Shown piece by piece: positions 21,001-24,000 of a DNA stretch of 64,000 nucleotides. The position numbers are program-made. The stretch's first letter is position 1, and the number at the start of each line of letters is the position of its first letter. The DNA lies in NCBI RefSeq assembly GCF_056712565.1, contig NZ_CM160072.1. One strand, written 5' to 3'.

Positions 21001-24000
21001 GCGATATTCGCGGAAGCCGAACCGTTTACGCCTTCAGAGAACGTGGATGCACAGCTTTATAATGGCTTTTTCAGTGACGCCGATCGTGCAGCAATGAAAA
21101 TTGTGCTGGAAACCGAGCCGCGTAATTTACCGGCACTGGATATCACTTTTGTTGATAAACGAATTGAAAAACTGTTGTTCAATTATCGAGCGCGCAACTT
21201 CCCGGGGACGCTGGATTATGCCGAGCAGCAACGCTGGCTGGAGCACCGCCGCCAGGTCTTCACGCCAGAGTTTTTGCAGGGCTACGCTGATGAATTGCAG
21301 ATGCTGGCACAACAGTATGCCGATGACAAAGAGAAAGTGGCGCTGTTAAAAGCGCTTTGGCAGTACGCGGAAGAGATCGTCTGAAACAAAAAAGCCGGAG
21401 CGACAAACTCCGGCTTTTTGAGATTTACCGGATGATTATGTCATCCGGTTTGTAAGATTACGCTACGTCTTCGTACTGCGGAACCGGGTTACGGAAACTC
21501 TTGGTTACGCAAGCCAGGTAAATCAGACCGATAGCAGCCCAGATCAGACCCAGAACCATTGAGCTTTCTTCCAGGTTAACCCACAGCGCACCAACGGTCA
21601 GCGCACCACACATCGGCAGGAACAGATACTGGAAGTGATCTTTCAGCGTTTTGTTACGCTTCTCACGGATCCAGAACTGCGAGATGACCGACAGGTTAAC
21701 GAAGGTGAACGCCACCAACGCACCAAAGTTAATCAGCGCCGTAGCCATTACCAGGTCGAAGTTGATTGCCAGCAGGGCAATCGCGCCAACCAGGATGATA
21801 TTCATCGCCGGAGTACGCCATTTCGGGTGTACATAACCGAAGAAGCTTTTCGGGAACACGCCGTCACGACCCATTACGTACATCAGACGCGCAACGCCTG
21901 CGTGCGCCGCCATACCGGACGCCAGTACGGTAATGGTGGAGAAGATCAGCGCGCCAACCTGGAACGCTTTACCCGCAACGTACAGCATGATTTCAGGCTG
22001 TGACGCATCCGGATCTTTAAAACGAGAGATATCCGGGAAGTACAGCTGCAGGAAGTAAGTTGCAAAGATGAAGATCATGCCGCCGATCAGCGCGGTCAGG
22101 AAAATCGCACGCGGGATCACGCGCTCTGCATCTTTGGTTTCTTCCGACAGGTTGCTGATGCCGTCAAAACCGGTAAAGGAGAAGCACAGGATTGTCGCCC
22201 CGGTAATCATCGGGATAACATGCGCATCGCCAGACCAGAACGGACGAGTGCTCGCCAGCGTACCAGCGCCTTCACCTTCAAATACGCCATAAACAACCAT
22301 GCCCAGAATCACCGCGATCAGCACTATCTGCAACACGACGATTACAGTGTTGAAGTTCGCTACGGATTTCAGACTACGCAGGTTAAAGGCGGTCATAAAG
22401 GCCACCAGAGCCACCACAAACATCCACGATGGAATGGAAGGCACCAGAGCTTCAAAATAGATTTTCGCCAGCAGAATGTTGATCATCGGCGCGAACAGAT
22501 AGTCGAGCAGAGAAGACCAACCCACCATAAAGCCGACAGTCGGGCTAATGGATTTCTGGGCGTAAGTGTATGCAGAGCCAGCAGAAGGATAGCGGCGAAC
22601 CAGCTTCCCGTAGCTCAGAGCCGTAAACAGGATCGCAATCAATGCGAACGCATAGGCTGTCGGCACATGACCATCCGTGAGGCCTGAAACGATACCAAAT
22701 GTATCAAACAGCGTCATCGGCTGCATATAGGCTAGACCCATCATTACAACCGGAACTAACGTAAGCGTTTTACGCAATTCCACGCGAGAGGTGTTTGGAG
22801 TAACGTTATGCAACATGGTCATTCTCCTTTACGGTGATAACCGTCGCGTAAGCAAAAAATTGCCCCATTTTTTTGGATTCCTCAGCGACAACAACTGTCG
22901 ATTTTTAGTAAATATCTATCCGGTACGAAGCCCGGCCTCTTGGTATGAATGATTGGTTTGAAGCAAAAAATAACCGACGCTAATTAAACGTCGGTTTTTA
23001 GTCATTTTTTGACAGCGGCGCATTGTGCCTAAATGGGGGGGAAATGACAAGAGAATGAGAGGCTTGCCATAATAATTTTTCTTTAAATGGCTGATTTTCC
23101 GTCATCAGATTTTGCATAAACACCGGCGATCGCACTATTTGCTAAAATTTCATCTCGCCACCAGCCGCTGGCAAGCCCTGCGGTCTGTTCATTCCAGCCA
23201 ATCCAGACGGGTTCAAAGAGAGTTTGGGCGACCACTTTCTTCTCGATTAACGCGCCACTATCGAGAAAACGTTGCGCCAGATACCGTGGTAAATAGCCGC
23301 AGCCAAGGCCGCTAATTTGCAGCTCCAGCTTGGTTTTAAAATCGAAAACGGTAATGGCTTCTTGTTCGTCGAGAAGTTGTGAGGCCGTAGAAGCGCCTGC
23401 CTGCGCAGTGTCCCCCACCACAATCGCCCGATATCGTTTAATGATACGACGGTTTAACGGTTCTTCTTCCTGGGCTAACGGATGATGAGGCGCGACCGCA
23501 AAGACTTGTTCAAGATCGCCCAACCGCGAGAAACCAAACTCACTGGAAGATGGTGGCTCATGCATCGCGCCAACGATAATATCCGCTCGCCCCTGAGTCA
23601 GGGCATCCCAGGAACCACCGAGTACGCCATTGATAAACTTCAGGCGCGTCACGCTATGATGTTGATAAAAAGCTTCAATGAGAGGCGCAAGCAGAGAAAA
23701 AGGAAACGTGTCGTCCACGCCAATCACCAGCTCGTTTTCCCAGCCTTCATGCAGTTTGATCGCCTGCTTTTCCAGTTCTCGCACGGTATGCAGAACTTCC
23801 CGCCCTTTCTCTAATAACATTTTTCCGGTACGGGTGAATTTAGCGCGGTGTCCGCTACGATCAAGCAATTGAATATTAAGGTCGCTTTCCAGCTTGTGAA
23901 CGGTGTAACTCAGAGCGGACGGCGTCTTGTAGAGTTTGGCTGACGCCGCCGCAAAACTGCCTTCTTTTTCTAAGGCATCGAGGATCATCAACACATCCAG

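Follow-up and report, generated by a model that had tools for sequence, protein, structure and literature searches.

The E. coli chromosome segment analysed here, a stretch of 64,000 nucleotides that we call the window, lacks tsuB and tsuA (yeeD and yeeE), the thiosulfate uptake genes that separate sbcB from plaP in K-12. We conclude, with a probability of roughly 0.8, that positions 21385-21457 are an intact and old "empty" haplotype from which tsuBA is truly missing, that no event at the level of this strain was responsible, and that the genes were probably lost through an ancient deletion.

In the window, sbcB (exodeoxyribonuclease I) occupies 19957-21384 on the plus strand and ends in a TGA stop at 21382-21384, and plaP (yeeF), encoding a putrescine/proton symporter, occupies 21458-22816 on the minus strand, with its stop (TTA as plus-strand letters) at 21458-21460. 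The gene coordinates were taken over from Nissle 1917, a genome identical at this junction whose RefSeq entry names both genes and has the same 73-bp gap; sbcB matches NCBIfam NF008746 with 814 bits, plaP has APC-family transporter NCBIfam matches, and the stop codons and the spacer were read from the sequence itself. The initial annotation had described sbcB and plaP as convergent and 73 bp apart, with stops at 21384 and 21458, and this is what we find. Over 25 kb the window is 100% identical to ST95-32, APEC O2:K1:H7, UPEC 26-1, and Nissle 1917, and judged by its sequence the source E. coli is ST95-like and belongs to phylogroup B2. The 73-bp convergent spacer (21385-21457) is what we call the empty allele of the tsuB-tsuA cassette site. 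No open reading frame fits in it, an Rfam search of it gave no credible match, and the spacer and its flanks hold none of the terminal repeats, target duplication, or recombinase gene that an IS or integrase excision scar might have left.

Both strands of the spacer fold into two hairpins (z = -5.7 and -6.0 relative to shuffled sequences), and the 91-nt region that contains them reaches -33.5 and -34.7 kcal/mol on the two strands. Hairpin 1 (21388-21419; AAAAAA-GCCGGAG-cgacaaa-CTCCGGC-TTTTT) forms 11-12 pairs on each strand, is flanked by A6 and T5 tracts, and lies at most 10 nt from the sbcB stop and 38 nt from the plaP stop. It has the structure of a Rho-independent terminator in both directions, and we infer that it ends both convergent transcripts; the bidirectional terminator hairpin that had been proposed for this spacer is thus borne out by the predicted folds. 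A simple terminator scan of the window did not flag hairpin 1, we think because A:T pairs prolong its stem into the T-run. The same A-tract/CCGGAG/CTCCGG/T-tract hairpin stands beside plaP in most of the Enterobacteriaceae loci examined, whether tsuBA is present or not, and in Atlantibacter, Franconibacter, Shimwellia, and Pseudescherichia another stem sequence takes its position. Hairpin 2 (21427-21449; ACCGGATGA-ttatg-TCATCCGGT) is an Escherichia-specific stem-loop that by alignment is found in B2, 042-type strains, E. whittamii, E. albertii, and a cryptic Escherichia lineage (E69), where one pair has changed in a compensatory manner. We considered hairpin 2 as a REP or BIME element and rejected the idea, as the 64-kb window contains a single copy of its sequence and a single match to the looser pattern CCGGATG-N3-20-CATCCGG.

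In K-12 (an annotated MG1655 derivative) the gene order is sbcB(+), tsuB/yeeD(-), tsuA/yeeE(-), plaP(-), in agreement with the initial annotation, which placed yeeD and yeeE between sbcB and plaP. By blastn, positions 1-4480 and 6001-12501 of the K-12 locus (L001) align with window positions 16903-21382 and 21456-27956, and the sbcB-plaP junction measures 1,520 bp in K-12 versus 73 bp in the window. A tblastn search of the 64-kb window with K-12 TsuA (YeeE/YedE family, PF04143) gave a best E value of 1.5, and one with K-12 TsuB (a TusA-like sulfurtransferase) gave chance-level matches only (E at least 0.13). Together with the alignment to K-12, these searches uphold the claim that yeeD and yeeE are absent between sbcB and plaP. 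The estimate of an indel of about 1.3 kb fits the two genes and the gap between them (1,300 bp) but not the whole cassette-specific segment, which is about 1,462 bp long and consists of a 42-bp spacer with its own hairpin, tsuB, tsuA, and a promoter region of about 120 bp. The inserts that relatives carry at this site (tsuBA or IS200C) lie between the sbcB stop and hairpin 1, at 21385-21387, as indicated by the K-12 alignment, which breaks off at the stop codon, and by an IS200C junction.

The plaP side of the spacer differs from K-12 in another way. A 7-bp direct repeat, the sole repeat in the spacer, has one copy at 21434-21440 (GATTATG) and a second at 21456-21462 that overlaps the plaP stop codon and reads GATTACG in the window and GATTATG in the 042-type, E. 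whittamii, E69, and E. albertii. If the 22 bp between the repeat copies are taken out of the window spacer, the exact K-12 sequence at the plaP stop results, so the repeat concerns this 22-bp difference and not the cassette. Of hairpin 2, only the left half survives in K-12, some 10 nt away from hairpin 1. The half hairpin and the 22-bp difference together lead us to conclude that the plaP-proximal end of the K-12 spacer is of Escherichia origin. The complete hairpin 2 of the window versus the half in K-12 also means that the window spacer cannot be derived from K-12 by deletion. In a sliding-window comparison of the flanks, the lone rise in divergence is a B2-specific cluster at the end of sbcB, where the final 230 bp contain 12 mismatches. 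We rejected this cluster as a foreign tract beside the cassette because the 042-type groups with K-12 there, so the rise is not linked to cassette state.

Empty junctions are not confined to E. coli. Orthologous two-hairpin spacers of 73-79 bp are present in E. whittamii, E. albertii, and the E69 lineage, each sampled by one genome; these three make up the non-coli Escherichia that the comparison covers. The empty spacers of B2, the 042-type, E. whittamii, E69, and E. albertii can be aligned end to end with both hairpins, and their divergence climbs together with that of sbcB (91-88% nt). When E. coli genomes were searched with the E69 junction for cryptic-clade relatives, none was closer than 93.9%. 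In the wider family, tsuBA is found in 19 of 80 Enterobacteriaceae species loci, and the order is the same in all 19: sbcB stop, short hairpin, tsuB, tsuA, conserved promoter region, hairpin 1, plaP. Clusters of TsuA homologues, sampled at 40 members each, carry only the names E. coli, Shigella, and Citrobacter. Across genera, cassette state does not correlate with whether sbcB ends in TAA or TGA. The plaP gene falls into two old allele classes within genera, which is a sign of recombination at the sbcB-plaP locus. One genome labelled E. coli, CUWW06, was considered as a tsuBA-bearing divergent Escherichia and rejected: its locus is only about 80% identical to K-12 and, his genes included, 96.7% identical to Kluyvera genomosp. 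3, so on sequence grounds it is probably a mislabelled genome and was left out as evidence.

The cassette is about as diverged as its surroundings. The K-12 tsuA gene is 74-80% identical in nucleotides to that of other genera, sbcB is likewise 76-82% identical, and the GC content of the tsuBA cassette equals that of the flanks, so the cassette is no recent import. The empty alleles in sister species, the placement of the cassette, and its flank-like divergence together indicate that both haplotypes predate E. coli. We lean towards an ancient loss over a gain. In this reconstruction the cassette would be ancestral at the sbcB-plaP site in the family, and the Escherichia empty haplotype would have arisen once, early, by a deletion of about 1.46 kb that would leave hairpin 1 as the terminator for sbcB and plaP both. 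The empty and occupied haplotypes are reshuffled among lineages by homologous recombination, to which the his/O-antigen neighbourhood is prone.

The competing explanation that survives best, and that we regard as possible at somewhat under even odds, is that the empty state is ancestral in Escherichia, that this genome never had the cassette, and that tsuBA was gained within E. coli, either after B2 and the 042-type had branched off or with later spread by recombination, from a relative with the cassette at the syntenic site. All three non-coli Escherichia sampled are empty, with orthologous spacers, so parsimony within the genus favours an empty ancestor and acquisition of the cassette by some E. 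coli, although this evidence consists of one genome per species. No cassette remnants were found in about 55 empty junctions of other genera, which are more easily explained by sites never occupied. In addition, hairpin 1 and the linker of K-12 are the most diverged in the alignment, with even the E. albertii sequence lying closer to each Escherichia empty allele, and the K-12 boundary GAAT-A7-CCGGAG resembles that of Citrobacter youngae; the diverged hairpin 1 and linker could reflect import from outside the sampled genus. Recombination at the locus is demonstrable as well, from the plaP classes and from published strains (PMC3158064). Against a gain, K-12 and B2 are about 98% identical on either side of the cassette, as far as both stop codons, and the hairpin 2 remnant lies so near hairpin 1 that homologous recombination with a foreign donor would have required crossovers only a few bases away from the cassette. 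Moreover, no donor is visible, tsuBA being as diverged from the sampled genera as the flanking core genes and having the same GC. An ancient deletion remains the reading that we favour.

The E. coli genomes themselves bear on whether the loss could be recent. Among 5,426 complete genomes, tsuBA DNA is present in 4,209, a count on which megablast and blastn agree; the sbcB-plaP junction is contiguous in about 1,212 and split in about 4,212. The tsuBA-bearing and empty-junction sets are complementary, and the empty state accounts for about a fifth of sequenced E. coli. Matches to tsuBA fall at a median of one place per genome, with a single plasmid place. In 431 genomes of the RefSeq set, IS200C lies between the sbcB stop and hairpin 1, as read at the junction of one such locus (L005). 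A second empty allele of 74 bp differs from the window at 4 positions and is identical in strain 042. As far as the sequences compared indicate, the empty junction is the standard state of phylogroup B2, ST95 and Nissle 1917 among them, and it occurs as a related allele in 042-type strains; the phylogroup assignment covers part of the 1,212 empty genomes. In IAI39 and SMS-3-5, of phylogroup F, a large inversion has moved the sbcB-plaP locus out of the stretch where the map would place it.

A recent clean deletion of yeeD-yeeE from a K-12-like ancestor, in this strain or its immediate lineage, would fit a gene order that differs from K-12 by exactly this block within collinear flanks. We nevertheless consider it very improbable: the same junction is shared by the roughly 1,212 complete genomes, in several clonal groups, and diverged empty junctions occur in the 042-type and in three other Escherichia species, so the initial annotation did not hold where it implied a deletion in this genome. 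Where decay is truly recent and independent, as in strain HH45, pseudogene fragments of the cassette are left behind, unlike the clean empty allele. Least credible of all is that tsuBA was relocated or that a diverged copy elsewhere in the genome keeps its function, since no support for this was found, tblastn of the 64-kb window was empty, and in the 5,426-genome set the near-equality of tsuBA genomes and split junctions leaves no room for copies in empty-junction genomes, the type to which the window strain belongs. A copy elsewhere, named at the outset as what would overturn the absence, thus did not turn up in genomes of this type. E. coli does have distant paralogues, yedE and yedF, which form a different system.

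YeeE and YeeD are required for growth on thiosulfate only if cysPUWA is deleted (PMC11073785). Relying on these published K-12 genetics, we infer that B2-type cells would be without the TsuA/TsuB thiosulfate route and would rely on the CysPUWA ABC system for both sulfate and thiosulfate. A more far-reaching idea, which we consider unlikely, is that Escherichia and other Enterobacteriaceae have long been polymorphic, across species boundaries, for the presence or absence of tsuBA at this junction, and that niche-dependent selection on thiosulfate uptake maintains both states. If this were true, thiosulfate availability in the inflamed gut might be the driver, extraintestinal-pathogenic B2 strains would be stably empty because the transporter is costly or disadvantageous to them, and neither haplotype would be a neutral leftover. 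As a discovery the difference is small, a routine one in accessory genes between E. coli phylogroups. Its practical meaning is that K-12 should not be taken as the reference for B2 lineages such as ST95, ST73/Nissle, and probably ST131. The junction might also serve as a PCR marker: an empty site would give a product of about 0.2 kb, a site with IS200C one of about 0.9 kb, and a site occupied by tsuBA one of about 1.6 kb. The old haplotypes and the two plaP classes also add a small data point on how his/O-antigen recombination keeps ancient variants circulating.

The absence of tsuBA at the B2 junction was already recorded in 2011, in a study that found B2 O157:H45/H39 strains without yeeD/yeeE between sbcB and yeeF, one of them with an IS200-like element at the sbcB-yeeF junction, and a phylogroup A strain in which a transferred segment of at least 34 kb accounts for their absence (PMC3158064). 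The IS200-like element of that strain parallels the IS200C in the 431 genomes above. The published account is a passing remark on five sequenced O157 regions, and it does not describe the spacer, the distribution, or other Escherichia species.

Compared with bidirectional Rho-independent terminators between convergent genes, hairpin 1, a putative terminator, shares a 7-bp GC-rich core stem and a stem-loop with a U-run from either strand; it differs in having a second hairpin, without a U-run, on its plaP side. The empty junctions of Salmonella, the Citrobacter freundii complex, and Enterobacter likewise have sbcB and plaP adjacent with the conserved CCGGAG/CTCCGG terminator between them, but their spacers are without hairpin 2 and can be aligned with Escherichia only at hairpin 1, and those of Enterobacter and Salmonella hold other sequences, e.g., REP-like elements. 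Relative to the tsuBA operon of K-12, the window is missing about 1.46 kb, made up of the operon itself, the promoter region, and the operon's own hairpin downstream, but it shares the chromosomal site, the flanking sbcB and plaP genes, and the plaP-proximal terminator hairpin.

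In the window, sbcB (19957-21384, plus strand) and plaP, formerly yeeF (21458-22816, minus strand), both with coordinates carried over from the Nissle 1917 annotation, face each other across a junction whose limits can be read directly from the sequence. The sbcB stop codon, TGA, is at 21382-21384 and that of plaP, TTA on the plus strand, is at 21458-21460, leaving a stop-to-stop spacer of exactly 73 bp. The left open reading frame scores 814 bits against the exodeoxyribonuclease I model, and the right one encodes an APC-family permease that RefSeq names plaP in genomes identical to the window at the junction. 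The spacer, AAC-AAAAAA-GCCGGAG-cgacaaa-CTCCGGC-TTTTT-gagattt-ACCGGATGA-ttatg-TCATCCGGT-ttgtaaga, contains no ORF of note and no credible Rfam match, and tblastn of K-12 TsuA and TsuB against the entire 64-kb window returned chance-level matches only. The absence of yeeD (tsuB) and yeeE (tsuA) between sbcB and plaP, as claimed in the initial annotation, is thus borne out. We call such a junction empty, and one carrying the tsuBA cassette occupied.

RNA folding places the same two hairpins on either strand of the spacer, with fold energies of -33.5 and -34.7 kcal/mol compared with about -17 for shuffled sequences (z = -5.7 and -6.0). Hairpin 1 (21388-21419 on both strands, counting its flanking tracts) is bordered by an A-run to one side and a T-run to the other. 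Read in either direction it is a stem-loop followed by a U-run, and it is probably the bidirectional terminator that had been proposed here. A simple terminator scan did not list it, we think because A:T pairs extend the stem into the T-run. The structure is conserved adjoining plaP across the family, whether the cassette is present or absent. In the empty haplotype hairpin 1 would end both the sbcB and the plaP transcripts, while in K-12 it would have only plaP to terminate, in keeping with the degenerate T-run found there on the side of sbcB. Hairpin 2 (21427-21449) occurs once within the window and by that test is not a REP-type repeat.

The K-12 gene order given in the initial annotation is correct: the annotation of an MG1655 derivative reads sbcB (plus), tsuB/yeeD (minus), tsuA/yeeE (minus), plaP (minus). 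By blastn, positions 1-4480 of this K-12 locus match window 16903-21382 at 98.1% identity and positions 6001-12501 match window 21456-27956 at 97.6%, and between the two blocks lie 1,520 bp in K-12 versus 73 bp in the window. The final ~58 bp of the K-12 block are homologous to the window spacer. This leaves ~1,462 bp that are specific to the cassette: a 42-bp spacer containing a separate GC-rich hairpin, then tsuB and tsuA with 13 bp between them, and a promoter region of ~120 bp. Hairpin 1 is recognisable in K-12 as AAAAAAA-CCGGAG...CTCCGG-TTTATT, and the sequence after it ends GATGATTATG-CTAC, where the empty alleles have GATGATTATG-tcatccggcttgtaa-GATTATG-CTAC. Removing from the empty sequence the 22 bp between two GATTATG direct repeats gives exactly the K-12 sequence. 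K-12 therefore keeps the left half of hairpin 2, which is Escherichia-specific, and its plaP-proximal end must be native to Escherichia. The 3′ end of sbcB (window ~21155-21384) carries 12 differences from K-12 over the last ~230 bp, or ~5% versus ~1.5% upstream; the empty allele of 042-type strains groups with K-12 here, so this excess is B2-specific and independent of cassette state.

Among 5,426 complete E. coli genomes, the window junction is contiguous in 1,212 (~22%), a count that includes genomes with a 712-bp IS insertion whose pieces the tool joined, and split in the rest. K-12 tsuBA DNA was found by megablast in 4,209, and in exactly the same number by the more sensitive blastn, at a median of one place per genome and at one plasmid place in all. 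Any match to the flanks was seen in 5,424 genomes, and the two sets together account for 5,421 of them. Because the sets are complementary, there is no room in empty-junction genomes for a relocated or diverged second copy, and these counts argue indirectly but strongly that tsuBA is lost, not moved, in this genome type.

Over its first 25 kb the window is 100% identical to ST95-complex strains ST95-32, APEC O2:K1:H7 E18055, UPEC 26-1 and ExPEC XM, and it also matches Nissle 1917 except for an ISEc53/clbS insertion between sbmC and dacD. ST95 and Nissle (ST73) belong to phylogroup B2. That insertion, present in Nissle (positions 1743-3500 of its locus; window ~18464-18581) and some relatives and absent from the window, carries an ISEc53 transposase gene and one gene of the ClbS/DfsB family. 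At the junction, most of the 1,212 empty-junction genomes share at least 99% identity with the window. In a minority, of the order of a hundred genomes, there is a second empty allele, 74 bp long and with four differences. Its flanks are equally distant from B2 and K-12, and it is 100% identical in EAEC strain 042, which belongs to phylogroup D. One 042-type strain, CB6837, has a pdu microcompartment operon (pduT, pduU, pduV) just upstream of tmaR-yeeA (positions 1-1247 of its locus). In IAI39 and SMS-3-5 an inversion displaces the sbcB-plaP locus.

The insertion within the junction is IS200C (712 bp, tnpA on the minus strand), which lies directly after the sbcB stop and upstream of hairpin 1 in 431 of the 5,426 genomes, about a third of all those with an empty junction; the window lacks it. 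Its site (window 21384/21385; 2001-2712 in the IS200C-bearing locus that we read) falls in the same few bases that the cassette occupies in K-12. Strain HH45 (locus positions 4043-4895) retains a truncated tsuB and a tsuA pseudogene fragment between sbcB and plaP, an independent and recent decay of the cassette; these remnants show what a young deletion looks like, unlike the clean spacer of the window. CUWW06 (NZ_CP182139.1), labelled E. coli, was set aside: over the entire sbcB-tsuBA-plaP-his stretch it shares 96.7% identity with Kluyvera genomosp. 3 and ~80% with K-12, so this is probably a Kluyvera genome that entered the RefSeq E. coli set under the wrong name. Some 6-7 records share its identity band.

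A PlaP protein scan of one genome per GTDB species yielded 80 loci. In E. whittamii, E. albertii and "E. coli E69" (one genome each), sbcB directly adjoins plaP, with spacers of 73, 79 and 73 bp, respectively. Because the nucleotide identity of its sbcB with the window is only 91.8%, we place E69 outside E. coli proper, in a cryptic Escherichia lineage. All three spacers align end to end with that of the window, both hairpins included, and differences from the window rise with flank divergence, from 4 in the 042 type to 6 in E. whittamii and more in E69 and E. albertii. Hairpin 2 of E69 carries a compensatory double change (GATGA/TCATC to GATGG/CCATC). From the end-to-end alignment and the parallel divergence of spacer and flanks, we conclude that the empty junction is a single, vertically evolving haplotype older than E. 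coli.

The occupied haplotype is also widespread, with tsuA and tsuB in 19 of the 80 species loci, including Citrobacter amalonaticus, C. sedlakii, C. youngae, Kluyvera, Pseudocitrobacter, a Leclercia, Pseudenterobacter, Siccibacter and Superficieibacter. The order in these loci is invariant: sbcB stop, short hairpin, tsuB, tsuA, a conserved promoter region (AACCAATAACCAAA...CTCTA...GGTTATT), hairpin 1 and plaP stop. Presence of the cassette varies between close relatives, with C. youngae occupied versus C. braakii and C. portucalensis empty. K-12 tsuA is 74-80% identical in nucleotide sequence to tsuA of the occupied genera, in line with the values for sbcB (76-82%) and yeeY (75-79%). Its GC content, 0.50, is also equal to that of the flanks, and recent import of the E. 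coli cassette from any of the sampled genera is thereby excluded. K-12 TsuA (4766-5824 of its locus, minus strand) also has ~70% identical homologues in Paenibacillus, Bacillus and related Firmicutes, unusually high for different phyla.

We lean, with a probability of about 0.5-0.6, toward an ancient deletion of the cassette early in Escherichia, followed by survival of both the empty and the occupied haplotype in the genus and their exchange through recombination. Synteny of the cassette across many genera and a divergence like that of its flanks favour this view, as does the ~98% identity between K-12 and B2 flanks, which extends as far as the stop codons. In addition, the hairpin 2 remnant in K-12 is only ~10 nt from hairpin 1, so that gain from another genus by homologous recombination would need crossovers within a few bases of the cassette. 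Gain of the cassette by an ancestrally empty junction is a less favoured reading, for which speak the empty state of all three sampled sister species, the lack of a cassette remnant in empty junctions of any genus examined, and the greater distance of the K-12 hairpin 1 and linker, compared with the E. albertii sequence, from the empty alleles of Escherichia. A recent deletion from K-12-like sequence cannot be the explanation, as the old, orthologous empty haplotype rules it out.

Exchange at this locus has precedent: a phylogroup A strain acquired the B2-type arrangement without yeeDE through a transfer that spanned at least 34 kb and took in the his operon (PMC3158064). Across Enterobacteriaceae, PlaP protein identity to E. 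coli is bimodal, at 96-100% or 87-89% even inside one genus, and Enterobacter species pairs are 90-94% identical in sbcB and yeeY nucleotide sequence versus 83-84% in plaP. Judged from these identities, two old plaP allele classes seem to have been exchanged between species.

Cells of the window type would lack the TsuA/TsuB thiosulfate route. In K-12, growth on thiosulfate requires YeeE and YeeD only in a cysPUWA deletion background (PMC11073785), so in most conditions the loss should have no visible effect. Elsewhere in the window, Rfam identifies the enterobacterial sRNA STnc240 (22963-23037, minus strand; 69 bits against a gathering score of 55) in the yeeY-plaP/yoeI intergenic region upstream of plaP. 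A His leader (25776-25899, plus), a JUMPstart element (52447-52485, minus) and an algC RNA motif (62172-62221, minus) score above their gathering thresholds and fit the downstream his operon and polysaccharide (O-antigen/colanic acid) clusters.

The absence of yeeD and yeeE is real, and its description was accurate, but it is an ordinary difference that was known before; to our knowledge, every annotated B2 genome shows it. Our additions are the ~22% count, a further empty allele carried by 042-type strains, empty spacers orthologous to that of the window in three more Escherichia species, a scattered distribution over Enterobacteriaceae that always involves the same site, and the 22-bp repeat-mediated difference that ties both haplotypes together, none of which will surprise a specialist. 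The arrangement itself was reported in 2011, when yeeD and yeeE were found to be absent between sbcB and yeeF in B2 strains, with an IS200-like element there in one strain (PMC3158064).
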